Position numbers and translations under genes: made by a program
Part shown: positions 43,171-59,200 of the stretch, in pieces
Layout of the letters: each line of letters opens with the position of its first letter
Numbering within the stretch: position 1 is the first letter of the stretch
Assembly: GCA_035528415.1 (NCBI GenBank)
Contig: DATKYQ010000044.1
Location: 4,473 to 68,472 of the forward strand
Length of the DNA stretch: 64,000 nucleotides
Source of the DNA: Myxococcota bacterium
GTDB lineage: Bacteria > Myxococcota > B64-G9
Direction: 5' to 3'
Notes under the pieces: generated by a model
What the model was told of the DNA's origin: nothing
Databases searched by the model: none
The model's input: only the letters and a program-made list of their open reading frames with translations

Positions 43171-43221
43171 GCAACAGGTTTACCGATTGCCGCTTGCATG
43201 CCTGTCTGCTACGCTTCAACA

Positions 43222-44295
43222 ATGATTGCTGTTATCGATAGGCGGCCGAGATGGAAGCGCCTGATGGCTATAGTTCTCGGCGCTGTGGTCACACTGGCTC
43301 TTGTTTTCGCGGGAGTGCTGATGTTGATCGAATGGAAGCCCGGGCCAGTCGAGGACACGCCGGTATCCGGAGGCGGCGACCGGGCACTGAAGCCGCCTGT
43401 GTCGCTGGATCTATTGTCTTTCAACATAGGCTACGGAGGGCTTGGCCGGCAGGCCGACTTCTTCATGGACGGCGGCGAACAGGTGCGCCCTGAGCGGGAT
43501 GCCGTCGAGGCCAACCTCGCGGCCTTCGGGGATGTCTTGCGCTCTCATCCGGCCGACATCGTCTTGCTCCAGGAGGTCGACCGCGACTCCTCTCGAAGCT
43601 ACGGCATCGACCAGGCCGCGGCCCTGGCCGGCGTGCTGCCGGGCTTTGCCCGCTCGATGGCGCTCAACTTCAAGGTGCCCTGGATTCCCTACCCCGTGTT
43701 GCGCCCGCTGGGCAGGGTTGAAAGCGGCCTGCTCTCTTTGAGTCGCTACCCGTTAGGCTCGGCCAAGCGCTTACAACTTCCCGGCTACTACCCCTGGCCG
43801 GTGCGCGTCTTTCATCTCAAGCGCTGTCTGCACCTGTTACGCTTCCCGGCCCCGGACGGCAAGGACTGGGTGATAATCAACCTGCACCTGTCGGCTTTCG
43901 ACAAGGGCGGCCGCCTGCGGCAGGAGCAGATGGTCTACCTGAAGAAACTGGTTATGGATCTGACAGGCGCCGGGCATCACCTGATCGCCGGGGGCGATTG
44001 GAACCAGGCCTTTCCCGGGATCGACGGCGGCACTTTTGCGCACGGCGATCCCGTTCCAGGCTGGTTCCAGCAGATGGATCCAGCCTGGCTCCCAGCCGGC
44101 TTCCGGTGGGCCTACGACCGCATGCAACCCTCGCTGCGCGCCATCAACAAACCCTACACACCAGGCGAGAACTTCCTGACAATAGTAGACGGCTTCTTAG
44201 TCGGCCCCGGAATAGAAGTGCTCGAAGTACACACGACCAACCTCGGCTTTGCCAACAGCGACCACAACCCGGTGCTGCTGCGGGTGAGGCTCTAA
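43222..44295 (+). CDS. Endonuclease/exonuclease/phosphatase (EEP) family protein, N-terminally membrane-anchored
   Basis: TM MAIVLGAVVTLALVFAGVLMLI; EEP landmarks LLQEVD, NLHLSAFD, GDWN, SDHNPVLL. Confidence 0.7.
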   Translation: MIAVIDRRPRWKRLMAIVLGAVVTLALVFAGVLMLIEWKPGPVEDTPVSGGGDRALKPPVSLDLLSFNIGYGGLGRQADFFMDGGEQVRPERDAVEANLAAFGDVLRSHPADIVLLQEVDRDSSRSYGIDQAAALAGVLPGFARSMALNFKVPWIPYPVLRPLGRVESGLLSLSRYPLGSAKRLQLPGYYPWPVRVFHLKRCLHLLRFPAPDGKDWVIINLHLSAFDKGGRLRQEQMVYLKKLVMDLTGAGHHLIAGGDWNQAFPGIDGGTFAHGDPVPGWFQQMDPAWLPAGFRWAYDRMQPSLRAINKPYTPGENFLTIVDGFLVGPGIEVLEVHTTNLGFANSDHNPVLLRVRL

Positions 44296-45317
44296 TTTCC
44301 CGGCTCGATGATTACTTTTATAGACTCGTCGCCTTGTGCGACCAGGCGGAAGCCTTCCTGGATTTGAGACAGCGGCAGGCGGTGGGTGACCATCTCGGCG
44401 ACGGAAACCGTCCGGCCGGCTATCAGATCCAGGGCTTCCGCGCAGTCGGCGGGCGAGCCGGCGTAGGACGGGACAAGGGTTATCCCGTTTCGCCAGAAGT
44501 CGTTCACCGGAACGGGAAGATCCTGGCCCGGGGGCGGGGTGGCGAAGAAGAGAACGGTTCCTCCCCGGTCGACCGAAAGGATGGCCTGATTGAGGACAGG
44601 GATGGTCCCGGCGCAGACTATTACCACGTCGGCACCGCGGCCCTGGTTGATCTTGCGGATTTCCGCCGGCACGTCGTCGTCCCCGTGCAGAACCGCCGTG
44701 GCACCGAACTTCTCGGCCTGTTTCATGCGGTAGGTGTTGATGTCTGTTGCTATCACCTGCGAAACGCCTAGTGCACGCGCGAGCGCAATGTGCAAGATAC
44801 CCGAGATGCCGCTTCCCAGCACTGCAACCGTCTTGCCGGGCTTGACCCCGGCGATGCGCTGGCCGCGAAGCACGCAGGCCAGCGGCTCAATAAAAGTACC
44901 CTCCTCGAAGCTCATGCTGTCCGGCAGAATAAAAAGGCCGCGATCGACATTGATGGCCGGTACGCGGACGAACTCGGAAAAACCTCCGGGATCGAAGTTG
45001 GTGGTATGCAGTGTCTCGCAGACGGTGTGCTGCCCGCTCAAGCAGTAGCGACAGGTGTTGCAGGGCACATGGTGGCTGACAAATACGCGCTCTCTGACCT
45101 TGTAGCGTGAAACTCCCGGGCCGACTTTCTCTATTGTGCCCGCGATCTCATGGCCCAGCACAAGCGGCGCTTTCTTGATGCGGTACCACTCCATGACATC
45201 GCTTCCGCAGATGCCGCTGGCGGCAACCCGCACCAGGATTTCGCCCGGCCCGATTTCGGGAACGGGCCGTTCCTCGACGCGGCTGTCTGTGTTGTTGTGG
45301 TAGACGGCGACCTTCAT
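44292..45317 (-). CDS. Zn-dependent medium-chain alcohol dehydrogenase (sorbitol/threonine dehydrogenase-like)
   Basis: GICGSDV ... GHEIAGTIEKVG catalytic Zn site; structural Zn Cys cluster CNTCRYCLSGQHTVC; Rossmann VAVLGSGISG. Confidence 0.8.
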   Translation of the reverse strand: MKVAVYHNNTDSRVEERPVPEIGPGEILVRVAASGICGSDVMEWYRIKKAPLVLGHEIAGTIEKVGPGVSRYKVRERVFVSHHVPCNTCRYCLSGQHTVCETLHTTNFDPGGFSEFVRVPAINVDRGLFILPDSMSFEEGTFIEPLACVLRGQRIAGVKPGKTVAVLGSGISGILHIALARALGVSQVIATDINTYRMKQAEKFGATAVLHGDDDVPAEIRKINQGRGADVVIVCAGTIPVLNQAILSVDRGGTVLFFATPPPGQDLPVPVNDFWRNGITLVPSYAGSPADCAEALDLIAGRTVSVAEMVTHRLPLSQIQEGFRLVAQGDESIKVIIEPGN

Positions 45318-45322
45318 GAGCG

Positions 45323-46111
45323 CTACTTTTCAGACGCCTTCAGATCCTGGTACATCTCGTAGGCCTGTCCGGCCGGCAGGTTCTTGTGAACAACGGCGCG
45401 CACCGCCTTGATCATGGCCACCGGGGAATCTGACTGGAAGACGTTGCGGCCCATGTCCACCCCGGCGGCGCCGTCGCCCACGGCGTTGGCGGCCATTTCT
45501 AAAGCATCCTTCTCGGGCATCTTCTTGCCGCCGGCGATCACCACCGGAACCGGAGTGGCGGCAATGATTTTCGAAAAATTCTCGCAGTAGTATGTTTTCA
45601 CCATGTGGCTGCCGATCTCGACGGCCATCCGGCAACACAGCCCCAGATAGCGGGCATCCCGGGCCATCTCGCGGCCCACCGCGGTCACGGTCATGACGGG
45701 GATGCCGTACTTGTTGCCCCAGTCGGCGAGCTTGCCCAGGTTGATAAGCGTCTGGTGCTCGCCCGGTGTGCCGACGAAGATGGACAGGGTGATGCCGCAG
45801 ACATTGAGCCTGATTGCATCTTCAATGTCGCAGGTGAGGCCTTCGTTGGAAAGTTCTGTGAGAATGCTGTTGCCCCCCGAGACGCGCAACATGATCGGCA
45901 CGTCGCTGTCGGGGTCGACACAGATGCGCAGCATTCCCCTTGTGATCATCAGGGTGTCGGCGTACGGCAGTAAGGGGTCGATCGTGCTCTTGAGATCCCT
46001 AAGGCCGGTGGTGGGTCCCTGAAAGTAGCCGTGGTCCACGGCCAGCATGACGATCCGTCCGGTATCGGGTTTGATCATCCGCGCCATTCTGTTCTTCATT
46101 CCCCATTCCAT
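45323..46111 (-). CDS. Class I DhnA/LsrF-type aldolase (fructose-bisphosphate aldolase family)
   Basis: 262 aa; blocks IVMLAVDHGY, ITRGM, MLRVSGG, HMVKTYY resemble archaeal-type class I FBP aldolase / LsrF. Confidence 0.7.
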   Translation of the reverse strand: MEWGMKNRMARMIKPDTGRIVMLAVDHGYFQGPTTGLRDLKSTIDPLLPYADTLMITRGMLRICVDPDSDVPIMLRVSGGNSILTELSNEGLTCDIEDAIRLNVCGITLSIFVGTPGEHQTLINLGKLADWGNKYGIPVMTVTAVGREMARDARYLGLCCRMAVEIGSHMVKTYYCENFSKIIAATPVPVVIAGGKKMPEKDALEMAANAVGDGAAGVDMGRNVFQSDSPVAMIKAVRAVVHKNLPAGQAYEMYQDLKASEK

Positions 46112-46302: not shown

Positions 46303-47748
46303 TCAGTTCCCCTTCTGGCCGGCAGACTGGCCGGTGGCGATGGCCACCGAGGCCGAGGCGCCGATACGCGTGGCGCCGGCCGCCACCATGGCCTCGGCCG
46401 TCTGACGATCCTTGATGCCTCCCGAGGCCTTGACGCCCATCTCGGGCCCGACCGTCTCGCGCATCAGGGCAATGTCCTCGACTGTGGCCCCGCCCCCGCC
46501 GAAGCCGGTCGAGGTCTTTACGAAATTCGCCCCGGCCATCTTGGCCAGCAGGCAGGCCTTGACGATCTCCTCCTTGGCGAGCAGGGCGGTCTCGAGGATC
46601 ACCTTGACCAGCGCCTGGCCGCGGGAGGCGTTGACGACTCCCTCGATGTCCCGGCGCACCAGTTCGTCGTCACCCGATTTCAGGGCCCCGACGTTGATGA
46701 CCATGTCGATCTCTCTGGCCCCGTTGGCGATGGCGTCGCGTGTCTCCATGGCCTTGGACGTCGGTGTCGTCGCGCCCAGCGGAAAGCCGATCACTGTGCA
46801 AACCTTGACGTCGCTGCCGGCCAGCAACCGGGCGCACAAGGCCACCCGACCGGGATTGACGCACACCGAGGCGAAGTGGAACTGCCTGGCCTCGGCGCAC
46901 AATTTATGAAACTGATCTTCGGTGGCGTCCGGCTTGAGCAGGGTGTGATCGATCATGCGGCTGATGTCGCCTGAGACAGGCTGCGCCCCAATCGAGGATC
47001 CAACACGCGCGGCGCCGCCTTCTACCAGCTTGCTGACCGCCTCTGGGTTGTTCTCGATGCACAGCCCGCAAGAGCTGCACTCGCCGATGGTCGCCAGCGT
47101 GCAAGCCGGGTTGGGCTTTTGCTCGCCCGTAACGGGATCGACGATTGTTCCCGGGCCGGTCATTTTATCGACGTCGCACAGGCACACGCCCAGCGCCGCA
47201 AGCTGTTTCTCGATGTCGGCGATCTTTTGCCTGACGGCGGCCGGCGCCGCGGCCGGCTCGATCTCGGCGGCAAACAGCGAGTCACGCGCGGCCACCACCG
47301 TGATTCCGCGCATCAGTCCATAGATTGCCAAGATGCAAACCAGGCTGTCGGGCAGCATGGTCAGCAGCTTCGAAGCTGCGTTGAGCGACATGTTCGGCAG
47401 GTAGATTACACCGACGCCGTCGAGCAACTTCCAGACGTCGCCCTCGGTGAGAACCTCGGCTTCGGGGGCGGCCCGGCGTACGGCCGGCACGCCGACAATC
47501 TTCTGCGCCGAGGAAGAGAGAACCACCTTGCAGTCCTCGCAGCAGTCGCAGATCTTGCCTACTTGCGAAAGCGCCTCTGTGAGCCTGCGGTTGCCGCCGG
47601 TGAGCAGGACCAGCACGCGTTTGCCCTTGGGCGTCGCGGGCGGTATCCAGCCGCTGTCCATTCTCTTCTCGCCTTCCGTGGACGGGGACGGCCCCAGCCG
47701 TTTGATCACTTCCGCGGATATCCTGCGAACCAGATCGTCGGAATCCAT
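46303..47748 (-). CDS. deoC: Fusion protein: N-terminal Cys-rich domain of unknown function with putative encapsulation peptide + C-terminal deoxyribose-phosphate aldolase
   Basis: C-terminal half has DERA landmarks ([28 protein letters not shown] with Schiff-base Lys, VKASGGI); N-terminal 250 aa start with the amphipathic [15 protein letters not shown] and contain CDCCEDC and CSSCGLC. Confidence 0.8.
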
Positions 47749-47889: not shown

Positions 47890-48177
47890 TTACTTGCCGG
47901 CGGTCTTGGGCAGGATGCCTTCCACGTCGCCGTGCGGACGCGGGATGACATGCACCGACACCAACTCGCCGACCTTCTTGGCCGCCACCGCGCCGGCTTC
48001 CACCGCGGCCTTGACCGCGCCGACGTCGCCGCGCACCATGACGGTCACGAACCCGCCGCCGATGAACTCCTTGCCTACCAGGGACACCTTAGCTGCCTTG
48101 ACCATTGCGTCGGCCGCCTCGATTGCGCCCACCAAGCCTTTGGTCTCGATCATTCCCAGCGCTTCTTTCGACTCCAC
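47890..48177 (-). CDS. BMC shell hexamer protein (BMC-H, PduA/EutM/CcmK family)
   Basis: 95 aa; GTG start; canonical Pfam00936 sequence [26 protein letters not shown] ... VHVIPRPH. Confidence 0.95.
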
Positions 48178-48199
48178 GTCAAACCTCCGTCTGTTGAAC

Positions 48200-48502
48200 T
48201 TAGGGATTCCAGATCTTCACACGGCCGCCGGGTTCTTCCTCGACGGCCAACTCATCCACGTATCCAACTATGGTCGCATCCACCGGGGGCTTGTCGCCTA
48301 AAGCGATGGCCGCGTCCCTCTTCATGACCAGGTAAACCACATCGCCGGGCCCGGCGCAACGAATCCCGTCGACTGCGACGAACGCTTCGCCCGAGGGCCG
48401 CAGGTTTTGGTCGAGCCCCTGAACGACCAGAAGCCTGAGACCCTCGAGTTCGGGGTCCTTGATCGTCGCCACTACGCGCCCGATGACTTTTCCCAAGCGC
48501 AT
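48200..48502 (-). CDS. BMC vertex pentamer protein (BMC-P, EutN/PduN/CcmL family), copy 1
   Basis: 100 aa from ATG 48502: [28 protein letters not shown] ... [10 protein letters not shown]; the track ORF start at 48712 overlaps rpiB and is rejected. Confidence 0.9.
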
Positions 48503-48509
48503 ACCTTGC

Positions 48510-48977
48510 CTACCCTTCCCGAACGCGATTCTCGACCGCGGTGATCTTGTCGAGCCTTTGCTGGTGCCGTCCACCGGCATAGTCGGTCTCAAGCCAGAGC
48601 TTGGCCAGATCCTTGGCCAGGCCCGGGCCGAGAACTTGTCCGCCCAGGCAGAGCACGTTGGCGTCGTTGTGCACCCGGCTGCTCTTGACACCGAAGGCAT
48701 CGTATCCGGCAATCGCCCTGATACCCGGCAGCTTGTTGGCCACGATGGCGCTGGCCTGCCCTATGCCGTCAATCATGATGCCCCGGCAATCCGCGGAAAC
48801 CCGCGAAGCTCCGGCCACGGCCTGCGCCACCAAAAAGGCGAAATCGGGATAATCGCAAGCATCCTTCCCGTGACAGCCGAAGTCGCGCACCTCGTGCCCA
48901 AGTTCCACCAGAAATGTCTTCAGCGACTCTTTCAGTTGGTAGCCACCGTGGTCGCTGCCGATAAAAATCTTCATCAC
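48510..48977 (-). CDS. rpiB: Ribose-5-phosphate isomerase B (RpiB/LacAB family)
   Basis: MMKIFIGSDHGGYQLKESL ... GIMIDGIGQASAIVANK ... NDANVLCLGG landmarks; 155 aa. Confidence 0.9.
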   Translation of the reverse strand: MMKIFIGSDHGGYQLKESLKTFLVELGHEVRDFGCHGKDACDYPDFAFLVAQAVAGASRVSADCRGIMIDGIGQASAIVANKLPGIRAIAGYDAFGVKSSRVHNDANVLCLGGQVLGPGLAKDLAKLWLETDYAGGRHQQRLDKITAVENRVREG

Positions 48978-49843
48978 GCCTTCTCCCGGGCCGTAATGGC
49001 GATGATTTCACTCAACGCTTCGGGATTCAAGCCCGCTCCTCCCACCAGGAAACCGTCGCAGTCCGGCATTCGCGCAAGATCCCCGGCGCTGCCGACACCG
49101 ACGCTGCCCCCGTAGAGCAGGCGCGACCGTTCGGCCCAGGCATGTGAAAACAACTCGCCCAACCTGTCGCGGATGAAAACCAGGGCCTCCTGGACCTGGG
49201 AGGGCGAGGCGACCAGTCCGCTGCCGATGGCCCAGATCGGCTCGTAGGCCACTACGATCTCCTGCGGATCGGGTGCCGGCTGCCCCAGCCCGGAAAGCGC
49301 CAGCGTGAGCTGGGCGCGCAGCACGCGGAAGGTCGCGCCCCGCTCGCGCTCTTCAAGCCGCTCGCCGACGCACAGAACAGGAGTCAGGCCTGCGGACAGC
49401 GCGGCGAGCAGCTTGCGGCGCACCAGTTCGTCGTCCTCGCCGGCCGCCCGGCGCTCGGAATGTCCCACGATCACGTAGCTCGCGCCGGCATCCTTTATCA
49501 TCTCGGCGCTGTGCTCCCCTGTATGCGCGCCGGAGTGTTCCGGGTGCAGATCCTGGGCGCCCAGGCTGACATGCGTGCCGTTGGAGAGCGCGCCGCGCAA
49601 CACCGGCAGCAGCACCAGCGGCGGGCACAACAGCGTGTCCACTCCGCTGTCCGCGTGAGGATTCAGTTTGGCCGCGTAGCGCCGCGCGTCCTCGGCCAGC
49701 AAGTTCATTTTCCAGTTGGCGGCGATCAGCGGCCGGCGACCGCCGCTGGCGGATAACCGATGTATATCTGCATCGCCCGCGGCCATGGTCTCGTAGACCA
49801 CCTGGCGCACCACCCGTTCCACTCTGTCCCGCAGGTCGCTCAC
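48974..49843 (-). CDS. tpiA: Triosephosphate isomerase with N-terminal extension of about 30 aa (candidate encapsulation peptide)
   Basis: IAANWKMN, VIVGHSERR, AYEPIWAIGSG, GGSV TIM landmarks; GTG at 49843 (GGGGAGGG RBS 9 nt upstream; overlaps the upstream BMC-P stop as GTGA) gives MSDLRDRVERVVRQVVYETMAAGDADIHRLSASGGRRPL before the IAANWKMN core; alternative start is the internal ATG around 49786. Confidence 0.8.
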   Translation of the reverse strand: MSDLRDRVERVVRQVVYETMAAGDADIHRLSASGGRRPLIAANWKMNLLAEDARRYAAKLNPHADSGVDTLLCPPLVLLPVLRGALSNGTHVSLGAQDLHPEHSGAHTGEHSAEMIKDAGASYVIVGHSERRAAGEDDELVRRKLLAALSAGLTPVLCVGERLEERERGATFRVLRAQLTLALSGLGQPAPDPQEIVVAYEPIWAIGSGLVASPSQVQEALVFIRDRLGELFSHAWAERSRLLYGGSVGVGSAGDLARMPDCDGFLVGGAGLNPEALSEIIAITAREKA

Positions 49844-50157
49844 TTGTGTGCACCCTCCCCGGCCGGCGCCTCGAGCGCCAGGCGTTCGCCGCGCACCCGG
49901 ACCTGATCGATCACCCCAACGATGATCGCTTCGCAAGGCGCGCTATCGCTGCCGAGCACCTGCCGGGCGCTCTTGCCTTCCTCGACCACCAGGACGTAGT
50001 CACCAACGCCCGCCTGGGCGGCGTCGATGGCGATAAAAGCAGGATCGGTCTGCCGCCCCTTGCTGTCGATCGGGCCGACGAACATCAGCTTACAGCCGAC
50101 ATGATCCGGATGCTTGACTGTCGCAACCAGCGACCCGATGACCCTCGCGATTTTCAA
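49840..50157 (-). CDS. BMC vertex pentamer protein (BMC-P), copy 2
   Basis: 105 aa: MKIARVIGSLVATVKHPDHVGCKLMFVG ... AIIVGVIDQV. Confidence 0.9.
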   Translation of the reverse strand: MKIARVIGSLVATVKHPDHVGCKLMFVGPIDSKGRQTDPAFIAIDAAQAGVGDYVLVVEEGKSARQVLGSDSAPCEAIIVGVIDQVRVRGERLALEAPAGEGAHK

Positions 50158-50186
50158 GTCAATCTCCTTATCCGTCCATCAGGCGA

Positions 50187-50750
50187 TCACAACAACTTCG
50201 CAACCAGGTCGGGATGCGGGGCCGGGATCACGGTCGTAGCCAACAGCAAGCCGTGATCGCGGGCCGCACGCTGTCCGGCCTCGACGGCCGCCCTGACGGC
50301 GGATACCTCGCCGGTCAGCAGCACATAGCCCTTGCCTCCCAGTGCCCGGGCCAGACGGATCTCGAGCAAGTCGACCCGGGCGCTCTTGACCGCCTGGTCG
50401 CCGGCGATGATCGCCGCAGCCAGCGAAAAAGTCTCGATCACTCCCAGGGCGGCGATGCCGGCCGGCACGGTCGTAGCGCTGAAGGCATCGAGTACCTGCG
50501 GATGAACGTTGGGAATGACGATCTCGTCCACTAAGCTGTCTCTGGCCTCGGTCTTCCCGGCCGCGACCGCGGCCTGCGTATCGGCCACCGCTCCACCGAT
50601 GATTGTCAGGTACTTGCCCGGGCAGACCGGGCTGGAAAACAGCAGACGCACCCGGGCGGCCTTGAGCATGGCATCAGCCGCCCGGATTCCCGTGACCACG
50701 CTGCTGGTCTCGACACAACCAATCGCCTGCTCATTTTTTTTCTCGACCAC
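50187..50750 (-). CDS. BMC tandem-domain shell protein (BMC-T, PduT-like)
   Basis: 187 aa with two BMC domains (AIGCVETSSVVTGIRAADAMLKAARV and ALGVIETFSLAAAIIAGDQAVKSARV). Confidence 0.85.
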   Translation of the reverse strand: MVEKKNEQAIGCVETSSVVTGIRAADAMLKAARVRLLFSSPVCPGKYLTIIGGAVADTQAAVAAGKTEARDSLVDEIVIPNVHPQVLDAFSATTVPAGIAALGVIETFSLAAAIIAGDQAVKSARVDLLEIRLARALGGKGYVLLTGEVSAVRAAVEAGQRAARDHGLLLATTVIPAPHPDLVAKLL

Positions 50751-50753
50751 GGT

Positions 50754-52106
50754 TTACTCCACGTCGATGGTGACGGCCGTCGGACTGACTTCGGCCACCC
50801 GTCCGGCAAGGCCGGTGTGTACGCATGCGCCCAGAGCGTCCCCGGGGACCTCTCCCAACAGCTCTCCGGCCGCTACATTCTGGCCGGCTTCTACCACGGC
50901 CTGTGCCGGCTGGCCGGCATGTTGCTTCAACGGTATGGTCAGGCGCGTCAGCTCGATTTCAAATGCAGCCCGGGGCGCCGGGCGATCGTAGGCGTCTAGG
51001 CCCAGGCGGGCAATCAGGCGTTTGGAAGGCACCCTGCGTAACGGACTGAATTCGCGTTCCGCCGATGTCACCGCCGGCTGCGGGCGAGGCATCCCGGCTT
51101 CCGTAAGTCGCCCTACAAACTCTTTGTTCATGGCGCACGGGTCGAGATTCATCACACAACCATAGGCCGTACATAACCCGCAGCCTGAGCAGAGAAAGGC
51201 CCCCGTGTAAGCCTGCAGATCCTCGCTCACGCTCGCGGCCAGGTTACGCATCAGTCGGTCGGGATAGAGCCGGTGGCCAAGCAAGTTGCGCGGGCAAATT
51301 TCGGTGCACAGCATGCACTTCAGACAAGCCGAGCGCGCCAGGTGAATTTGGCGCTCGACTGTCCGCCGTCGACGTGTGACCTGCGGGTGATCCGCGGGAA
51401 GCACGAGCATAAGGCTTGTGGTCTTGGTTACTACTGAGGAACTCTCGTCCACGATCGAACCCATCATCGGCCCGCCGGAAATGACTACTGCCGATTCGCA
51501 GGCTGCTCCCCCGGCCGCTTCCAGCAGAGCCGACAAGGGAGTTCCAAGCGGCACGCGGAAGGTGGCCGGGCTCCCGACCGCGCCCGCCAGGCTGACGTAG
51601 CGGTGCGTGACAGGCTGCCGGCCGTCGACGGCCGCGGCCACATCGATCAGGGTAGAGACATTCGACACCACGGCGCCCACCGCGAGCGGCAGGCCGAACT
51701 CGGGAATTACACGATCGAGCACCTCGCGTACCAGCACAAACTCGTCCCCGGCCGGGTAAAAGTCATCCAGCAGGCGCAACTCAATCTTCTCGCCAATATT
51801 GCCGAGTTTGATTGCCTCGCCGAGCGCATCGATCGCTGGGGCGTATTTTTTCTTGAGCGCCACGATCCCGCGCCGGGCACCGGTGATCTCCATGGCGATC
51901 TGCAGCCCGCGCAGCACCTCGCGGGGCTTCGAGGCCATGCGCTGCTGGTCGACCCGCGCCAGCGGCTCACACTCGGCCCCGTTACCGATGACTACCTCCA
52001 CCTGCGCTGCATACTTGACATGGGTGGGGAAACCCCCGCCTCCGGCGCCGACCACGCCGGCCGTGCGAATTCTTTCGAGCCACTCTTTTACAGAACCATG
52101 GACCAA
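50754..52106 (-). CDS. PduS-like RnfC/NuoF-family Fe-S flavoprotein (BMC-associated oxidoreductase)
   Basis: GAGGGGFPTHVK nucleotide-binding N-terminus; SLBB-like region; two 4Fe-4S motifs CLKCMLCTEICP and CSGCGLCTAYGC; 450 aa. Confidence 0.8.
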   Translation of the reverse strand: MVHGSVKEWLERIRTAGVVGAGGGGFPTHVKYAAQVEVVIGNGAECEPLARVDQQRMASKPREVLRGLQIAMEITGARRGIVALKKKYAPAIDALGEAIKLGNIGEKIELRLLDDFYPAGDEFVLVREVLDRVIPEFGLPLAVGAVVSNVSTLIDVAAAVDGRQPVTHRYVSLAGAVGSPATFRVPLGTPLSALLEAAGGAACESAVVISGGPMMGSIVDESSSVVTKTTSLMLVLPADHPQVTRRRRTVERQIHLARSACLKCMLCTEICPRNLLGHRLYPDRLMRNLAASVSEDLQAYTGAFLCSGCGLCTAYGCVMNLDPCAMNKEFVGRLTEAGMPRPQPAVTSAEREFSPLRRVPSKRLIARLGLDAYDRPAPRAAFEIELTRLTIPLKQHAGQPAQAVVEAGQNVAAGELLGEVPGDALGACVHTGLAGRVAEVSPTAVTIDVE

Positions 52107-52117
52107 GCCAGCTCCTC

Positions 52118-53587
52118 TCAGACGATCCTGAAGGCCCCGGCCAGCACGCAGCGGCGCTGCCTGGTGAACGTGCGCGCCGAGGTCAGGCCCTCGCCGGTGG
52201 GGCCGGCGATGCTCAGCGTGGTAAAACCCTCGCCGCCGAATCCCAGCCCGGCGTAGGAGGGAGCGTTCTTGACGAAGATGGTGGTCTCGATCTCGCGGGC
52301 CACCAGGCTCATGTTGCTGACGCTCTCCGAGTGCATCATTGCCGAGTGCCGGTTGCCATGCTCGGCCTGCTTGGCCTTGGCAAGCGCAGTGGTGAGATCG
52401 GGCACTGCAACGATCGGCAGGATAGGCATCAGCATCTCGGCCTGCACCAGGGGATGCTCGAAGGGCACCCGGCAGATCACCAGGCGCGTATCGGGACCGG
52501 CCGTGAGGCCGATCTGATCCAGCAAGACCGAGGCGTCTTTGCCGACGAACTTCTTGTTGGGGTGCGGGTGAGGCCGGCCGGGCTCGACCAGCACCGAGGT
52601 GATCTTATCGACATCGTCGCCCGAGATCAGACGCGCTCCATAGGTAATCATCTCATCGATCAACCTGTCGGCGACGTTTTCTAAAACCAGCACCTCTTTC
52701 TCGGCCGTGCACAGGACGTTGTTGTCGAACGATGCCCCGTCGACGATACAGCGGGCGGCCTTGCGGATATCGGCGGTGTCGTCGACGATAACCGGCGGGT
52801 TTCCCGGTCCGGCCGCGACCGCCTTCTTGCCGCAGGTCATGGCCAGCCTGACCACCTCGCCCCCACCGGTGACCATCAATAACCGGATGCCGGGATGCAT
52901 CATGATCGCCTGCGATGTCTCCAGGCTGGGCTGGGCGATAGAACACAGCAGCGTCTCGGGACCGCCGGCAGCATGGATGGCCTTGTTCAGAAGACTCACG
53001 GCCTCGTTGCTCACCCCCTTGGCCAGCGGGTGAGGATTGAAGACCACCGCGTTGCCGGCCGCCACCATCGAGATGCCGTTGTTGATCACGGTGGCCACCG
53101 GGTTTGTGCAAGGGGTAACGGCGGCGACGACACCGTAGGGCGCCGGCTCAACAAGCGTCAAGCCGTCGTCGCCCGTGTAACACATCGGCGTCAGGTCTTC
53201 CACTCCCGGTGTCTTGCGGGCCGCCAGCAGGTTCTTCTGCACCTTGTGCTCGGCGCGCCCGAAACCCGTCTCGGCCACAGTCTTGCGCGCCAGGTCCTCG
53301 GCCATCTCGATGCCCGCCTGCCGCATAGCCTTGATGAACACCCGGCGGCGTTCGAGAGACACGCCCGAGAATGCCTGGTAGGCGGCCCCGGCGGCGGCGA
53401 TGGCCTCTTCCATCGTCTCGAAGACGCCATTCGCAGTTGACCCGCCATTTTGCGCGCCGGCCCGCGGCTCGCAAATAAGTGACCGCGGACGTGGTTCTGC
53501 AACAGGCTGCGAATCGCCGTTCGTCACTCGCCTGACGATCTCGGTCACCAGCCGCTCGATCTCTTTTTCGTTCACCGGAATGGTCAT
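52118..53587 (-). CDS. CoA-acylating aldehyde dehydrogenase (PduP/EutE family) with N-terminal encapsulation peptide
   Basis: N-terminal amphipathic EKEIERLVTEIVRRV; ALDH superfamily body with catalytic Cys region NNVLCTAEKE; 489 aa. Confidence 0.9.
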   Translation of the reverse strand: MTIPVNEKEIERLVTEIVRRVTNGDSQPVAEPRPRSLICEPRAGAQNGGSTANGVFETMEEAIAAAGAAYQAFSGVSLERRRVFIKAMRQAGIEMAEDLARKTVAETGFGRAEHKVQKNLLAARKTPGVEDLTPMCYTGDDGLTLVEPAPYGVVAAVTPCTNPVATVINNGISMVAAGNAVVFNPHPLAKGVSNEAVSLLNKAIHAAGGPETLLCSIAQPSLETSQAIMMHPGIRLLMVTGGGEVVRLAMTCGKKAVAAGPGNPPVIVDDTADIRKAARCIVDGASFDNNVLCTAEKEVLVLENVADRLIDEMITYGARLISGDDVDKITSVLVEPGRPHPHPNKKFVGKDASVLLDQIGLTAGPDTRLVICRVPFEHPLVQAEMLMPILPIVAVPDLTTALAKAKQAEHGNRHSAMMHSESVSNMSLVAREIETTIFVKNAPSYAGLGFGGEGFTTLSIAGPTGEGLTSARTFTRQRRCVLAGAFRIV

Positions 53588-53600
53588 GAACTCAACCTCG

Positions 53601-53891
53601 TTACTTGGCGAAAGTCTGCCGCCCGCCGATGTCGATAAAATCTACTATGGCCACAATGGTCGCGTCGACCGGCGAATCATGGGTGGTGTCGGTCAGCCTC
53701 GACGATGAGCCCTGAACCACCAGCACTATCTCGTCCTCGCCGGCCCCGACTGAATCCACGGCTACCAGTTGTTTGCCGCTGGCTTCCTGTTTCTCGAAAT
53801 CGACCGGATCGACGACCAGCAGCTTGGTTCCGGAAAGCTTCTCGGATTTCCGTGTGCTGACTACGTTTCCTACAACTCGCGCAAGAAACAT
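53601..53891 (-). CDS. BMC vertex pentamer protein (BMC-P), copy 3
   Basis: 96 aa: MFLARVVGNVVSTRKSEKLSGTKLLVVD ... ATIVAIVDFI. Confidence 0.9.
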   Translation of the reverse strand: MFLARVVGNVVSTRKSEKLSGTKLLVVDPVDFEKQEASGKQLVAVDSVGAGEDEIVLVVQGSSSRLTDTTHDSPVDATIVAIVDFIDIGGRQTFAK

Positions 53892-53935: not shown

Positions 53936-54703
53936 TCACACATCCAGCTTGACGATCTCAATGCCGAGATCGCGCGCCCGGCTTTCCGCCATAGGCGTCA
54001 CGATGGTGCCCGCGGGCAGCGTAAGTTGGCGTTCACCCGCCCGCGCCAGTTGTTCTACGTCGTCCTCCGTCACAAGCCCGTCGAAAGAGCGGGCCCGCGT
54101 GGTACCGGACGTCCCGATGTGTTCGATCAGCCCCGCTATATCGGCCGCGGCTACAGGCTGCAACCCCAGCGTGTCCAGGTCACGCAAAATGCTTGCGGCC
54201 TCGGCCCCCGTCTGACCCCGTGCGCCCAACCCGGACGGTCGCAGATCGTCCGTGACCAGGGCCACGCGCCGCCCGGCCAGAAGAGCCTGACTGACCAGCC
54301 TGACGAAGGGCTGCCCATCGCGCCTGTCAATCAGCGCCCGGGCGTGCTCGAAGCCGATACTGCCCACCAGCACCAGGTCATCGCGGCCGATCTCGCCAAG
54401 CGCATAGCTTAAGTCCGCCTCCGAAAAAGCGGAGATATCGCCGCCCAACTTCCCGCGCAAGCCCCCGCTATCGATGTCGCCGAGCAGGGCTGACTCACAG
54501 AGTACCCTCACGCGCGCGCCGCCTGCGACCAGGGGTGCCAGTTGGTCTGCCAGGATCCCGAGGTTTGCCGAGGCCACTGGCAACACCACGAGGATTCGCG
54601 GTGCGTGGCCCGCTGGGGGCAAACTCGCGGGGGACCCCAAGCGCGCCAGAACACGTCCGGTGATTTCCTCAATCAGGCGCTCGATTTCCTTGTCGTCTGC
54701 CAT
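53936..54703 (-). CDS. BMC-associated protein of unknown function with N-terminal encapsulation peptide
   Basis: N-terminus MADDKEIERLIEEITGRVLARL nearly repeats the aldehyde dehydrogenase EP (KEIERL); 255 aa; C-terminal TEDDVEQLARAGERQLTLPAGTIVTPMAESRARDLGIEIV block; no confident family assignment. Confidence 0.6.
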   Translation of the reverse strand: MADDKEIERLIEEITGRVLARLGSPASLPPAGHAPRILVVLPVASANLGILADQLAPLVAGGARVRVLCESALLGDIDSGGLRGKLGGDISAFSEADLSYALGEIGRDDLVLVGSIGFEHARALIDRRDGQPFVRLVSQALLAGRRVALVTDDLRPSGLGARGQTGAEAASILRDLDTLGLQPVAAADIAGLIEHIGTSGTTRARSFDGLVTEDDVEQLARAGERQLTLPAGTIVTPMAESRARDLGIEIVKLDV

Positions 54704-54720: not shown

Positions 54721-55413
54721 TTACCGAATCGTCACACCGCCGGCCGTGTAATCACAGAAGGGACGCGTGTTGCCACCCTCGGTGCTCTGGGAGGCAAGGC
54801 ATCCCTCGCGGCCGCACAGGTCAAGGCACAGGCTTGGGACAACCTCGACCCGGCTGCCTGCTACGACTCCCGCCGCGTTGCCCTCATCGGTGTCCAGGTG
54901 CAACTCGGTCAGAAATTTGTCGCTCACCCGCACGACGATTTCATCGAAGATCAGCGAGCGCGGCCCCGGAAAGTGAACATACACCTTCTGGCCGTTTGTT
55001 ACTCCGAGCCTGCGGGCGTCCTGCGGTGTCGCGTGGATGTGGCGCACGGCGCAGATGCAGCCCGAGTTCAGCCGAACCGCCCCGCGGGGTCCAATCAGAT
55101 CGGCGCCCGGTGTGCCCGCCAGGTCGCCGGACAGGCGCACGGGCACGTTTATACCCAAGGCAACCCCGTCGCTTACCGACAACTCCACCTGGCTCGCGCC
55201 GCGGGGAGGGCCGAGAATTCGCACCCCGGGAATCGAGCGCCGCGGTCCGACGACCTCCAGCGTCTCGCGCGCGGCATACTGGCCCGGCTGGGACAAGGCG
55301 GACACAGGGGTCAGGCGGTAGCCGTGCCCGAAAAGCTCTTCCACATGCCGATCAGACAGGTGAACGTGCCGGGCCGAGAGGGCGACCGGGATGGTGCGAT
55401 CTCCGTTTTCCAT
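54721..55413 (-). CDS. pduL: Phosphotransacylase PduL (phosphate propanoyl/acetyltransferase)
   Basis: Two PduL-type repeats with metal-binding His motifs: SARHVHLSDRHVEELFG and ICAVRHIHATPQDARRLGV; 230 aa. Confidence 0.85.
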   Translation of the reverse strand: MENGDRTIPVALSARHVHLSDRHVEELFGHGYRLTPVSALSQPGQYAARETLEVVGPRRSIPGVRILGPPRGASQVELSVSDGVALGINVPVRLSGDLAGTPGADLIGPRGAVRLNSGCICAVRHIHATPQDARRLGVTNGQKVYVHFPGPRSLIFDEIVVRVSDKFLTELHLDTDEGNAAGVVAGSRVEVVPSLCLDLCGREGCLASQSTEGGNTRPFCDYTAGGVTIR

Positions 55414-55457: not shown

Positions 55458-56033
55458 TTACTTCGCCTTCAGGGAGTTCATGGCCTTGCCGACGGTGGCC
55501 GCCTCGCCCGGGCACTTCTGCGAAAAATCCATCATGACCTTCTGCATCTCGATCATGGTGGGCGCCATTAAAGCCACCAATTGCTGACCCATCTTGGCCG
55601 CATCGGGTCCCTTCATGTTCTTGCTCATCTCCTTCATTTTCTTAGAACACATCTCGATTTCGGCCTTGTTCTTCTCGACGTAGGCCGTGGCGGCAGCGGC
55701 CGCTTTCTTGCAATCCGGCATGCCGCCCTTGACGGCCTGCGTCACCTGGTTGATGTGCGCGACCATCTTCTTCATGTGCTCGGGCGCGGTCGAGGTGTCG
55801 ACGTTCTTGGCCATCTCGGCCGCGGCCGCGACGGCTTTGGCTGCGTCATCCTTGGCTGCCTCGGCGGCGCCCTCGACTGCCTCGGCTGCGCCCTCGACTG
55901 CCTCGGCGGCGCCCTCGGCTGCCTTGACGGCACCCTCGGCGGGCGCGTTCTCGTCGGTCTTCTTGTTGCAGCCAAGCGCCATGAGACTCGCGATTGCCAA
56001 CATGGTAACGAAAATCTTCAGAATCCGGTTCAT
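55458..56033 (-). CDS. Lys/Ala/Glu-rich lipoprotein with AEAVEGA tandem repeats
   Basis: ATG at 56033 gives MNRILKIFVTMLAIASLMALGC (lipobox); repeats AEGAVKAAEGAAEAVEGAAEAVEGAAEAAKD encoded by 21-nt DNA tandem repeats; visibly lower GC and Lys-rich compared with neighbours. Confidence 0.55.
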   Translation of the reverse strand: MNRILKIFVTMLAIASLMALGCNKKTDENAPAEGAVKAAEGAAEAVEGAAEAVEGAAEAAKDDAAKAVAAAAEMAKNVDTSTAPEHMKKMVAHINQVTQAVKGGMPDCKKAAAAATAYVEKNKAEIEMCSKKMKEMSKNMKGPDAAKMGQQLVALMAPTMIEMQKVMMDFSQKCPGEAATVGKAMNSLKAK

Positions 56034-56251
56034 GTCTTCCTCCTCCGAGGTTTTTGTACCCCGTCCATACGGGACACCAAGAACTTCATCCCGTATAACC
56101 GGGCAATCTATATCCACGACAAGTCGCCACAGTATCCCTCCCCGGAACGAATTTCAAGTATGTTCTTTCCGTCATCGAGAAACTGCGGACTTGAACGAAA
56201 CCGCCTTTCCCCCTAGTGTTATATGGAACAGAAAAAAGGGGAGACGATCTC

Positions 56252-59200
56252 ATGATCACAGAGAAACCAGGCAGGCTATCTTTGTCCCGCGCTTTCTTGC
56301 TGCCGGCGCTTGCCGGCCTGTTGTTGTCGGCCTGCGGCTCGGACAAGGCAGGCTCGAAGTGCGGCGACTGCTCCACGCTCGACGGGCCCTGCAGCCAGGG
56401 AGCCTGCAACGAAGACACCCGCGAGTGCTTCGCCGATGCGATTAACGAGGGCACCGACTGCAGTGACGGCGACAAGTGTACACTCGACGACAGCTGTCAG
56501 GCCGGGCAGTGTGTGGGCACGCCCATGGAGTGCACCGAGCAGGTGTCCGAGTGCGTGGCCGGTGTGTGTGACAAGGGCGAGTGCACATACCCAGCTCGGC
56601 CGGACGGCACGGCCTGCATCAGCAAGACAGATGAGTGCAACGACGGCCAGTGCCTGGCCGGCGAGTGCAGCGCCGTTGTGAAAGCCGACCAGACACCCTG
56701 CAACGACGGCGACTGGTGTACCACCCCCGACAGTTGCGCAGCCGGCGTCTGCGATGGTACGGCACGCAACTGCTCGGACGGTCTCGACTGCACCAGCGAC
56801 TCGTGCGACCCGGATCGTAACGCCTGCGGCTACCAGGTGGCCGCAGACAACTGCCTGATCGCCGGCAACTGTTTCGCGGACGGTGACCCCAACCCGGACA
56901 ATTCCTGCCAGGAATGCGCTGCCGCCATGAACCAACAGGACTGGTTCAACGATGACAGCAACGCCTGCGATGACGGCAACCTGTGCACGGATCCGGATGG
57001 GTGCACGGACGGGGTATGCTCGGGAACGCCCGTTTCCGGCTGCTGCCTTGCCGACGGCGATTGCGGCGACGGCAAGGACTGCACTACTGATGTCTGCAAC
57101 ACGGCGGACGGCACCTGCACGAACGGCGTCGATGCCGGATATTGTCTGATCGGCGACCTGTGCGTTACCGACGGCACCCTCAACCCGGCCAATGCCTGCC
57201 AGTCCTGTATCGCTGTGACAAACCAGACCGGCTGGGCGGACAACAATGATCCCTGCGACGACGGATTGTACTGCACAACGGACGACCATTGCGGCGGCGG
57301 ATCGTGCCAGGGCACCAGCGGCACGATCTGCGATGACGGCGTAGACTGTACCGACGATGTCTGCAACGAATCGGCCCAGAGTTGTTCTCATGCGCCCTCT
57401 GCCGGCCAGTGCCTGATCGGCGGCACCTGCTTCGCGGCGGGAGCACTCAACCCGAACAACGACTGCCAAGAGTGTATTCCGGCAGGCAGCCAGACAGACT
57501 GGAGCGCCGACGACAGCAACACCTGCGACGACGGAAACAACTGCACCGACTCCGACCACTGCAGCGCAGGCACCTGCACCGGAACGCCCATTCCCAACTG
57601 TTGCACCAGCGACGCGGAATGTAACGACAACCTGGATTGCACCAGCGACAGCTGCACGCTGGCCACAGGCGCCTGCACAAACTCCGTCAATGCCGGCCAG
57701 TGCCTGATCGCGGGCGCCTGCTACGCCAACGGAATTCCCAACCCCAACAACAACTGCCAGGCCTGCGCGGCAGGCACTGTCCAGGACACCTGGTCGCCGG
57801 CCAACGAAGGCGCCGAGTGCGGCGGGATCTGCCAGGCATGCCAGGGTGGAACATGCGCAAACATGCCCGACACGGGCGACGCCGATCCCTTCGGCGAATG
57901 CCCGCCCTGCCGCGTGTGCGACGGGTCCGGCGGCTGTCGTAACGCCCAAAACGGCACCGACCCCAAGAACGACTGCCAGGCGGCCGAGTGCGTCTTCGAC
58001 GTTTGCCAGGCAGGCTCCTGCAACATGACATCGGGCACGCAGTGTACCGACAGCGACCAAGGCGACTGCAACGACGCCCAGTGCAATAGCCTGGGCACTT
58101 GCCTGCAGGACTTCGCCTACGAGGCATCCGGCTACGCCTGCGATGACGCAGACGCCTGTACCACTCCAGATCAGTGCGACACGTTGGGACAGTGCGCGGG
58201 CGCTGCACTGGCGCCCGATCCCGATCCCGATTCGGTTGTTTCGGCAACCAGCGCCTGCCTGACCTACTCCACGAACTCCCGCACGGTAGTCAGCGTCGCC
58301 CTGAACGACACGGGCGGAACCCCGATCGGCGCCGCCACGGTGACCATCGAGGCCGACGACGCAGGCATCAGCTGGAGCGGCCCGGTCGTAGAATCGGCCG
58401 TTGCGCCGGGAGTCTACTTCCGCGTCATGCAAACCCCGGCGGCGCAGATTCCGGGCGACGACACCGTGGTATCGGTAAGCGCGCATTCGGGGTCTGGCGC
58501 CTGTCAGTCTTCCGAGGAAGCAATGAACACGACCGCAACTATCGTCTTCGCCGCGCAGACCGCGGCGGGAGCCGCGGCCGGCACCGGCGGCTGCCCGATC
58601 GACAACAATCTCAGGGTGCGCGTCATTGACGCCCGCGATTCGAGCCCCATAGCCGGCGCCTACGTCATGGTGGGCCTCGCCCCTGGCGACGTTTTCGAAG
58701 ACGACTTCGAGCAAGTCCTTTCGGGCGCGGCCAGCCTGACAAACGCCGGGCGGGCCGATACCGGCGGGATGATTGAGTTCGAGGACCAGGGCACGGCCCT
58801 GGATGGGCCGCAGATTGTAACAGCCGGTTTCGACAACATGAGTTACACGAGCATGGTCGACGTCGACGCGGCCGACATCGTCATCTCGCTGACCCCTATT
58901 AGCGCCATCCCGGCCATGGCGAAGATCGCGGGCTCGGTGACCGGGTTGCCGATCGTAAGCTACGACGACATCGTCAATGCGGCCATGGTTATCAACCAGT
59001 TCAATATGGACAGCCTGGTCAAGTTCAGGTTCGACGATCTGCTGGCCCAGGAGGAAGACTGCTGGCTGGCGGCCTCCATCTTTCTGCTGGGCGACCAGTG
59101 GGCGTCCATGCCGGCCAACATCGACGTTCCCCAGCAAACCGAGAGATATATCTTTCCCGTGACTATCAACCCGCACTTCTACCAAACCGTCCCGCTCGAG

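Follow-up and report, generated by a model that had tools for sequence, protein, structure and literature searches.

Three BMC-P paralogues and few hexamer genes in a probable sugar-phosphate utilization metabolosome operon of a Myxococcota bacterium

Sugar-phosphate utilization (SPU) metabolosomes are recognized in the literature by the combination of a DERA-type aldolase, an RpiB-type isomerase, an aldehyde dehydrogenase (AldDh), and at least three BMC-P genes, with a change of the catalytic Cys of RpiB to Asp as a further hallmark. A BMC-P triplet has been reported for all SPU loci (Sutter et al. 2021), and two of the triplet members are described as “always next to each other.” The shell sets catalogued for SPU5, SPU6, and SPU7 consist of the triplet together with one BMC-H and one BMC-T. 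Descriptions of BMC-P triplets and H-poor shells date from 2014, 2021, and 2024, and Haliangium ochraceum, with one BMC-H, three BMC-T, and three BMC-P genes, was highlighted in 2014 as an extreme P-rich, H-poor case.

Here we analyze a microcompartment locus within a 64-kb stretch of DNA from a Myxococcota bacterium (the window, meaning the whole stretch of 64,000 nucleotides), an uncultured organism for which Polyangia are the nearest named relative. We read it, with a probability of roughly 85%, as an SPU metabolosome operon that carries the canonical BMC-P triplet and represents a natural minimal variant. Since a triplet accompanied by few hexamer genes has already been catalogued and is widespread, the window locus is an ordinary example of that pattern.

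Shell genes of the window

The original prediction counted three BMC-P genes, one BMC-H gene, and one BMC-T gene, and Pfam matches confirmed this inventory, with all five genes on the minus strand between positions 47890 and 53891; gene calls made independently on the source contig returned the same shell genes. BMC-P1 (53601-53891, 96 amino acids [aa]; PF03319, E = 2e-30) starts with ATG and has an AAAGGAG ribosome binding site (RBS), BMC-P2 (49840-50157, 105 aa; PF03319, E = 1.6e-25) starts with TTG and has an AAGGAG RBS, and BMC-P3 (48200-48502, 100 aa; PF03319, E = 3.6e-22) starts with ATG. The BMC-H (47890-48177, 95 aa) contains one PF00936 domain (E = 8.8e-29) and is PduA/EutM-like, with PDB matches to EutM and PduA at E values of 1e-34 to 1e-40. 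Its translation includes the KAAK and PRPH interface motifs, and it is 96% identical to its orthologue in L089, the closest relative of the locus (dN/dS of 0.04).

The BMC-T (50187-50750, 187 aa; E = 2.3e-46 for two PF00936 domains) is of the single-layer, PduT type. Its best PDB match is 3nwg (E = 5.9e-53), followed by the PduT structures 3pac and 3n79, and its pore cysteine lies in the motif PVCPGKY, which is conserved with 3nwg in the alignment. The match to TIGR02526 (eut_PduT; E = 7.4e-36) is under the equivalog cutoff. A PduS homologue lies 3 bp upstream, and the features by which PduT-type BMC-Ts are recognized (tandem PF00936 domains, a pore Cys, and an adjoining PduS homologue) are thereby all present.

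When the 64-kb window was searched in six frames with phmmer/tblastn, no further shell genes were recovered, and sister contigs contained no PF00936 or PF03319 genes within approximately 3.9 kb and 3.2 kb past the window ends. One additional candidate, at positions 20639 to 20791 (matched by the BMC-T seed with 15.5 bits), was rejected because its 36-residue match, in a 51-codon stop-to-stop fragment, falls short of a BMC domain.

BMC-P groups and syntenic relatives

The three BMC-P proteins score 105.6, 89.8, and 79.1 bits against PF03319 (cutoff, 25), and each covers profile positions 1 to 83 of 83. Pairwise identity is 36 to 45% over residues 1 to 45 and 37 to 38% over residues 46 to 85, and divergence is confined to tails of 10 to 20 residues past the Pfam domain. 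The earlier description of paralogues that share only an N-terminal consensus and diverge in their C-terminal halves is contradicted by these values, as the tails alone diverge. Overall, the paralogues are just 34 to 38% identical to one another, so the duplications are ancient rather than recent.

Homologues form orthologous groups P1 (n = 44), P2 (n = 32), and P3 (n = 31), with identities of 62 to 67% within groups versus 39 to 43% between groups. The window proteins fall into three separate clusters, corresponding to the three distinct-clade paralogues that define a triplet (Sutter et al. 2021). Exactly one member of each group was present in 26 of 39 DERA-linked loci, with an extra P1 in 4 more, and the groups are kept one per locus across Chloroflexota, Actinomycetota, Myxococcota-like, and Planctomycetes-Verrucomicrobia (PVM)-like loci. 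Where P3 genes had at least 3 kb of flanking sequence, P2 was found in the same locus in 35 of 36 cases and was directly adjacent in 25 of those; in the window, P2 and P3 are parted by two isomerase genes (~1.7 kb). P2 and P3 probably correspond to the clades labeled “grey” and “orange.”

All three BMC-P proteins match solved pentamers by sequence. BMC-P1 is the nearest to solved vertex pentamers, and its best PDB match is the pentamer of the H. ochraceum shell (5v74, E = 8.7e-20). An AlphaFold2 model of BMC-P3, built on a three-sequence alignment, had a low pLDDT of 63 and was thus used for fold class only; its top 39 PDB fold matches are all BMC-P proteins, with TM scores of 0.55 to 0.74. 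The core motifs (V6, G8, T13, A.D, AG.GD, and a C-terminal D) are common to all three groups, suggesting that all three proteins most likely form pentamers able to dock at vertices. Group-specific features include an Arg in P3 that replaces the Gly of P1 and P2 in a “GSSAR”-type loop (alignment columns 64 to 70) and longer, variable C-terminal tails in P2 and P3. All three genes are under purifying selection, with dN/dS values of 0.07 to 0.30: the ratio is 0.07 to 0.21 for P1 and, in comparisons with L089, 0.08 for P3 and 0.30 for P2, the fastest evolving of the three (compared with 0.12 for the DERA gene).

The gene order PTAC-unk-P1-AldDh-PduS-T-(H2)-P2-TPI-RPI-P3-H-DERA is kept in 10 complete loci. 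In most syntenic relatives a second BMC-H with a basic tail (H2) lies between BMC-T and BMC-P2, and two BMC-H genes occur in L083, L085, L086, L088, L093, L095, and L096. This second gene is missing in the window, making the locus a natural minimal variant and not a new architecture. In L087 and L089, BMC-T is likewise followed directly by BMC-P2, and L067 has the same count of three BMC-P, one BMC-H, and one BMC-T genes as the window. A shell set of the triplet, a single BMC-H, and a single BMC-T was the commonest configuration in our locus sample, which was anchored on DERA or P3 homologues, so that its frequencies are not population estimates. The metagenome query was a narrow P3 alignment, which biases the metagenome sample to close relatives and AldoII-type loci.

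Enzymes, SPU subtype, and other triplet shells

Like the shell genes, the enzyme genes of the operon lie on the minus strand. The DERA (DeoC) signature aldolase (46303-47748, 481 aa) matches PF01791 over residues 266 to 476, and no variation is seen at D348, K382, or K411 across 18 homologues; it has an N-terminal extension of ~260 aa and many full-length homologues. The RpiB-type sugar-phosphate isomerase (48510-48977; PF02502, E = 2.2e-45) has Asp in place of the catalytic Cys, with GIMIDGIG aligned to GILICGTG of Escherichia coli RpiB (1nn4). The acylating AldDh (52118-53587, 489 aa; PF00171, E = 3.3e-37) has its domain from residue 49 onward, and the preceding 48-residue extension contains an amphipathic helix, EKEIERLVTEIVRRV, a putative encapsulation peptide (EP) by its appearance. 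A pfam01791 DERA-type aldolase, a pfam02502 RpiB-type protein with the Cys-to-Asp change, and an AldDh with a putative EP are the features by which SPU loci are identified, and all were found here.

Four further genes complete the operon. A triosephosphate isomerase (TPI; 48974-49843, 289 aa as called; PF00121, E = 8.6e-77) carries an N-terminal extension of ~37 aa with an EP-like helix, DLRDRVERVVRQVVYETM. A PduS/RnfC-like flavin and Fe-S oxidoreductase (50754-52106, 450 aa) matches PF01512, PF13534, PF13375, and PF10531, and a PduL-type phosphotransacylase (PTAC; 54721-55413, 230 aa) matches PF06130 (E = 8e-71). The fourth gene (53936-54703) encodes a conserved 255-aa protein that has no Pfam match, has an EP-like N-terminal helix, and is syntenic in all close relatives; its match to eut_hyp (TIGR02536) is weak (E = 2.3e-4, 20.9 bits against a cutoff of 152.6) and limited to residues 209 to 252. 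The idea that this protein and the N-terminal domain of DERA are paralogous was dropped at the sequence level, as BLASTP returned no similarity between them.

Assignment to an SPU subtype is ambiguous. The enzymes fit SPU4 (Sutter et al. 2021, Supplementary Data 2), which combines AldDh, pfam02502 RpiB, pfam01791 DERA, PTAC, and pfam00121 TPI with a BMC-P triplet, with N-terminal EPs on AldDh, DERA, and TPI, and with an EP-bearing protein related to eut_hyp or flavoproteins (matched here weakly, over the C-terminal 44 residues of the 255-aa protein). PduS-associated BMC-Ts are also found in a subset of SPU4 loci. However, the catalogue gives SPU4 a pair of similar BMC-H genes, whereas the window has one, and SPU4 is known mostly from Firmicutes, with a single deltaproteobacterial member. 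The 260-aa, flavoprotein-like extension of the window DERA is a further difference.

Other described shells resemble the locus in part. SPU5 shares the triplet, one BMC-H, and PduS-associated BMC-Ts with a pore Cys but lacks RpiB. SPU6 is alike in size, with the triplet, one BMC-H, and one BMC-Tdp, and the Chloroflexi SPU6 loci in our sample, among them that of Levilinea (L042), which is catalogued as SPU6, contain the same P1, P2, and P3 groups as the window; the BMC-domain HMM missed the permuted BMC-Tdp of SPU6, and BMC-T counts for these loci were taken from the literature. Unlike the window, SPU6 has a BMC-T of the Tdp type and an AldDh whose EP is at the C terminus, and it lacks PduS, PTAC, and TPI. 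SPU7 shares one BMC-H, the triplet, and the PduS/T pair but has DERA and two of its BMC-P genes in a satellite locus. H. ochraceum, despite the similarity of its pentamer to P1, has three BMC-T genes including a BMC-Tdp, and its locus lacks DERA and RpiB. PVM and ACI loci have simple shells in which the BMC-P triplet is accompanied by one or two BMC-H genes, and the P1, P2, and P3 groups are present in such loci that we recovered, both PVM-like ones of the order AldoII-H-H-PTAC-P1-P3-P2-AldDh and others of the order AldoII-H-P1-P3-P2. A class II aldolase takes the place of DERA as the signature enzyme of PVM and ACI loci, which have neither BMC-T nor PduS.

Against this background, we find no support for regarding the inventory as unusual, as was done originally: the set is that of SPU5, SPU6, and SPU7, it is the commonest in our sample, and H. 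ochraceum had been flagged in 2014. The accompanying premise, that most metabolosome loci have a single pentamer, is right only in part.

Possible roles of the triplet and its cargo

In the shell that we envisage, the facets would be tiled with hexamers of the single PduA/EutM-like BMC-H; the number of genes does not dictate how much protein is made, and one BMC-H gene is enough, as it is for the shell of H. ochraceum. Beside PduS, its partner, the PduT-type BMC-T would take a place in the facets, presumably to recycle electrons or cofactors. The three BMC-P proteins are ancient, nonredundant paralogues, and we infer that P1 acts as a generic vertex cap and that P2 and P3 are the pair that always co-occurs across BMC types.

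It is possible, though we lean against it, that P2 and P3 have a role beyond that of homopentameric vertex caps, for example, in mixed pentamers, in a specialized vertex or portal, in size control, or in assembly or cargo tethering. Such a role has been suspected in the literature, and the original prediction pointed to it on the grounds that a shell has only 12 vertices for three paralogues; of that reasoning, our data support only the part that the paralogues are not inactive duplicates. It would be in line with the near-obligatory co-occurrence of the two genes, which are usually adjacent, and with the Arg-for-Gly loop of P3 and the long, variable tails. On the other hand, the same core motifs and a full-length domain are found in all groups, which ordinary pentamers fit equally well. 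Moreover, in the solved structure of the H. ochraceum shell (5v74), a single BMC-P closes the shell. A more specific version, in which the P2/P3 pair forms a distinct assembly (a mixed pentamer, a specialized vertex, a portal, or a size-determining element) on which lineages with a single BMC-H and without a second, basic-tailed hexamer rely to close and organize a minimal shell, strikes us as somewhat more doubtful. If it were true, the role of the triplet could be dissected in a natural system as compact as this locus of H, T, P1, P2, and P3.

A second alternative, which we consider unlikely, is that the inventory is minimal in appearance only, with more BMC-H or BMC-T genes residing in satellites at other places of the genome. 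BMC systems commonly have such satellites, as do SPU7 (two BMC-P and DERA) and SPU1 (sometimes PduS/T). The second BMC-H of most syntenic relatives is missing here, and our view covers ~71 kb of the genome. Against this alternative stand the empty census of the window and sister-contig flanks, the catalogue (in which SPU4 generally has no satellites and SPU5 has none), the direct passage from BMC-T to BMC-P2 in L087 and L089, and the shell gene count of L067, which equals that of the window. Finally, it is highly improbable that two members of the triplet have no function of their own and are redundant copies or copies in decay, an outcome that the original prediction had itself named as counting against it: the fast evolution of P2 and its TTG start might hint at decay, but all three open reading frames are intact, with full-length Pfam domains and plausible RBSs, each belongs to its own orthologous group kept one per locus across phyla, the low paralogue identity points to an ancient duplication, and dN/dS is well under 1 for all three.

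As an SPU operon with a canonical triplet, the locus is of modest value, adding one more metagenomic SPU representative that is naturally reduced to five shell genes. Such a set might be used to address the triplet question on a small scale or to supply parts for shell engineering, but the window does not in itself make that question more testable.

For the cargo, we infer that DERA would split deoxyribose-5-phosphate into acetaldehyde and GAP, that AldDh, PTAC, and acetate kinase (AckA) would convert acetaldehyde to acetate with formation of ATP, and that TPI would handle GAP. With regard to this deoxyribose-5-phosphate pathway, the only DERA assayed in the literature is that of SPU6. An acetate kinase gene lies at 39903-41159 on the plus strand, next to genes for a hybrid histidine kinase (41137-43170, minus strand) and an EEP-family nuclease or phosphatase (43147-44295, plus strand), all identified by Pfam; these neighbors recur in L086 and L088.

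Operon structure was read from the close spacing of the genes, which overlap or are separated by small gaps. Promoter-like matches were at the level of shuffled sequence in the promoter scan (2 versus 2.5 expected), and most matches in the terminator scan fell within genes or were on the wrong strand. Beyond DERA, a gap of 191 bp that contains a promoter-like match precedes two more minus-strand genes (44292-46111), which possibly form a separate transcription unit. They encode an LsrF-type class I aldolase/thiolase (45323-46111; NF006081, 398.7 bits against a cutoff of 297) and a Zn-dependent alcohol dehydrogenase (44292-45317; PF08240 and PF00107).

Two side observations may interest SPU specialists more than the shell count: one is the fusion of the DERA to a flavoprotein domain that is UbiX/HFCD-like and has a Cys4 motif, and the other is the LsrF-type thiolase, which stands where a class II aldolase is usual.

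Gene cluster and locus type

The interval originally flagged lies within one co-directional cluster, in which all genes from ~55413 down to 44292 are on the minus strand. The cluster encodes a PduL-type phosphotransacylase (PTAC; 54721-55413), a conserved protein of 255 aa that matches no Pfam family (53936-54703), BMC-P1 (53601-53891), an aldehyde dehydrogenase (AldDh; 52118-53587), a PduS/RnfC-like flavo-Fe-S protein (50754-52106), a tandem-domain BMC-T with two PF00936 domains (50187-50750), BMC-P2 (49840-50157), a triosephosphate isomerase (TPI; 48974-49843), an RpiB-type isomerase (48510-48977), BMC-P3 (48200-48502), a BMC-H with one PF00936 domain (47890-48177), a 481-aa DeoC-type aldolase (DERA; 46303-47748), an LsrF-type class I aldolase/thiolase (45323-46111), and a Zn-dependent alcohol dehydrogenase (44292-45317). 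From PTAC to BMC-H, genes are spaced by 3 to 44 bp or overlap by 4 bp. Gene identities and synteny, like the pentamer grouping and selection described below, were observed directly, and the coordinates match independent gene calls made on the source contig, which is 70.8 kb long and comes from an ENA metagenome assembly.

Sugar-phosphate utilization (SPU) metabolosomes are defined by DERA (pfam01791), RpiB (pfam02502), AldDh, and at least three BMC-P genes (Sutter et al. 2021; 2024 SPU paper), and a Cys-to-Asp replacement has been reported in all SPU isomerases. The window RpiB carries this replacement, with GIMIDGIG aligned opposite GILICGTG of Escherichia coli RpiB. Judged from sequence, AldDh, TPI, and DERA each carry an N-terminal amphipathic helix of the encapsulation peptide (EP) type. 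The BMC-T aligns with PduT-type structures, and its pore cysteine (PVCPGKY) is retained; the BMC-H is PduA/EutM-like, with interface motifs KAAK and PRPH. The locus is a new metagenomic example of an already known kind of BMC. We leave its subtype at "SPU4-like," because its single BMC-H does not fit SPU4.

Shell gene inventory

The original prediction counted three BMC-P genes, one BMC-H, and one BMC-T. Pfam domains agree, and this inventory is correct for all visible sequence because a phmmer/tblastn census of all six frames, queried with each of the five shell proteins, found no other shell gene in the 64 kb, and sister contigs reaching ~3 to 4 kb past each window end have no PF00936 or PF03319 gene. 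The sole extra census match, 36 residues within a 51-codon fragment, was discounted as a shell gene. Additional shell genes may be present in satellite loci elsewhere in the host genome.

Seven syntenic relatives (L083, L085, L086, L088, L093, L095, and L096) have a second canonical BMC-H of 102 to 126 aa with a basic C-terminal tail, located between BMC-T and BMC-P2 in five of the seven; the copies at this position (L083:7138-7518, L085:7212-7571, L086:5555-5863, and L088:7166-7525) have a KAAN-type motif, and their tail is Arg/Lys-rich. A further comparison locus, L084, has four BMC-H genes. In the window, BMC-T and BMC-P2 are 29 bp apart (50158-50186), with no detectable trace of a second BMC-H. 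A single BMC-H without a remnant of another is also seen in L089, the closest relative, and in L087, which is more distant, so this state is a recurrent variant and not an assembly artifact.

The inventory had been called skewed, as if unusual; catalogued shell sets and counts from our own sample make it the norm for this large BMC-type group. A BMC-P triplet occurs in all SPU loci; triplets comprise a grey-clade and an orange-clade member, which always co-occur, and a third from another clade (Sutter et al. 2021). The catalogued shells combine this triplet and one BMC-H with PduS-associated BMC-Ts bearing a pore Cys in SPU5, with one BMC-Tdp in SPU6, and with a PduS/T pair in SPU7, and H. ochraceum (one BMC-H, three BMC-T, and three BMC-P) was named the most extreme case in 2014. 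In our sample, which is biased, 36 loci had complete shell neighborhoods; at least three BMC-P genes occur in 31 of these, and 20 of the 31 have a single BMC-H. Why triplets exist is again given as unknown in the 2024 SPU paper, and the interpretation offered with the original prediction restated this known open question without added leverage.

Three maintained pentamer groups

The comparison covered 80 DERA-encoding genomic loci, 7 syntenic metagenomic loci recovered via close DERA homologues, and 36 loci recovered via P3 alignment. The 114 BMC-P domains of the DERA-linked set formed three main clusters, each containing one window member, with mean identities of 62 to 67% inside groups versus 39 to 43% across groups. 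Exactly one P1, one P2, and one P3 were present in 26 of 39 shell-bearing loci, and four more had an extra P1. Loci with the three groups came from Anaerolineae and other Chloroflexota, one actinomycete, one Polyangia MAG, and close relatives; the groups were also found in PVM-like loci (AldoII-H-H-PTAC-P1-P3-P2-AldDh) and in soil-metagenome AldoII-H-P1-P3-P2 loci. Of 36 P3 loci with adequate flanks, 35 also had P2, directly adjacent to P3 in 25 and ~1.7 to 2.2 kb away in 10, as in the window. The published BMC-P triplet is reproduced here on independent data.

All three window pentamers match PF03319 over its full length (E = 2e-30 for P1, 1.6e-25 for P2, and 3.6e-22 for P3), with pairwise identities of 34 to 38% across 91 to 96 aligned residues. 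The earlier observation holds in substance, except for the detail that the pentamers share only an N-terminal consensus and diverge in their C-terminal halves: identity is 36 to 45% over residues 1 to 45 and 37 to 38% over residues 46 to 85, and divergence is confined to short tails past the domain. Core motifs are common to the three groups, the clearest group-specific change being Arg instead of Gly in P3 (a "GSSAR"-type loop). Relative to L089, whose DERA is 90% identical, dN/dS was 0.30 for P2 and 0.08 for P3, compared with 0.04 for BMC-H and 0.12 for DERA; for P1 it was 0.07 to 0.21, measured against relatives more distant than L089. Among the three, P1 most resembles solved vertex pentamers (best match, H. 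ochraceum shell pentamer, E = 8.7e-20), and the P3 AF2 model (shallow alignment, low confidence, pLDDT 63) has structural matches exclusively to BMC-P. Together, the three conserved groups, P2/P3 co-occurrence, shared motifs, dN/dS of at most 0.30, and structural matches exclude inactive or recent duplicates.

BMC-P2 is the fastest-evolving shell gene and varies greatly in its C-terminal tail, which in the L087 orthologue (L087:7521-7901) is a repeated Ser-Arg dipeptide (SKSRSRSRSRSRSRSR).

Proposed shell, cargo, and neighboring genes

Going by gene families and the published SPU model (2024 SPU paper), the facets would be made of the one BMC-H, with PduT-type trimers sitting in them beside PduS for redox or cofactor recycling. 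The pentamers are predicted to cap vertices, with P1 as the presumptive default cap and P2/P3 as a conserved pair of putative specialization. DERA would open the cargo pathway by converting deoxyribose-5-P to acetaldehyde and GAP; acetaldehyde may then yield acetate and ATP via AldDh, PTAC, and acetate kinase, and GAP would be handled by TPI.

The DERA N-terminal extension (46969-47748, minus strand) is ~260 aa long, versus ~70 aa published for SPU6 DERA, and comprises an EP-like helix (residues 3 to 17), a well-predicted domain (~44 to 195; pLDDT mostly 81 to 96), and the motif C216-x7-C224-x2-C227-x2-C230. The domain has a predicted UbiX/HFCD-type flavoprotein fold (Foldseek versus UbiX 7km2, E = 8.6e-9) and also matches EpiD, MrsD, and DmrB; homologue P0084 matches PF02441 (E = 1.5e-5). 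Each Cys column is at least 90% conserved in 13 homologues, and the motif is absent from some more distant ones. These features suggest that the signature aldolase bears a fused flavin and/or Fe-S module. The nearest named relative of this DERA, from a Polyangia MAG, is 53% identical; window GC is 62%. Taken with the two very large Cys-rich proteins described below, these two features hint at a host resembling Myxococcota.

In most relatives (L083, L086, L088, L089, L093, and L096) DERA is followed by a class II aldolase (PF00596). The window instead has, after a 191-bp gap that contains a promoter-like match, an LsrF-type 3-hydroxy-5-phosphonooxypentane-2,4-dione thiolase (NF006081, 398.7 bits versus a cutoff of 297) and the alcohol dehydrogenase (44292-46111, minus strand), neither with an obvious EP. 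The 255-aa protein, kept in every syntenic locus, has an N-terminal EP-like helix (DKEIERLIEEITGRVLARL) and at its C terminus weakly matches TIGR02536 eut_hyp (E = 2.3e-4); it probably corresponds to the protein described for SPU4 as "eut_hyp-type, flavoprotein-related."

Operon neighbors (37807-44295) kept in relatives L086 and L088 encode an OPT-family transporter (37807-39939, plus), acetate kinase (39903-41159, plus), a PAS-containing hybrid histidine kinase (41137-43170, minus), and an EEP-family nuclease/phosphatase whose N terminus includes a hydrophobic segment (43147-44295, plus), the last consistent with the proposal that links SPU compartments to DNA scavenging. Directly upstream of PTAC, a 191-aa open reading frame without a family match (55458-56033, minus) combines a lipoprotein-like signal (…LMALGCNKK) with a repeat region rich in Ala, Glu, and Lys; it is conserved there in L083, L087, L088, L093, and L096. 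Farther out are two Cys-rich, probably secreted proteins, one of 1,310 aa (56216-60148, plus) and one of 1,649 aa (24697-29646, minus) that combines CARDB and matrixin domains with Dictyostelium-type Cys repeats.
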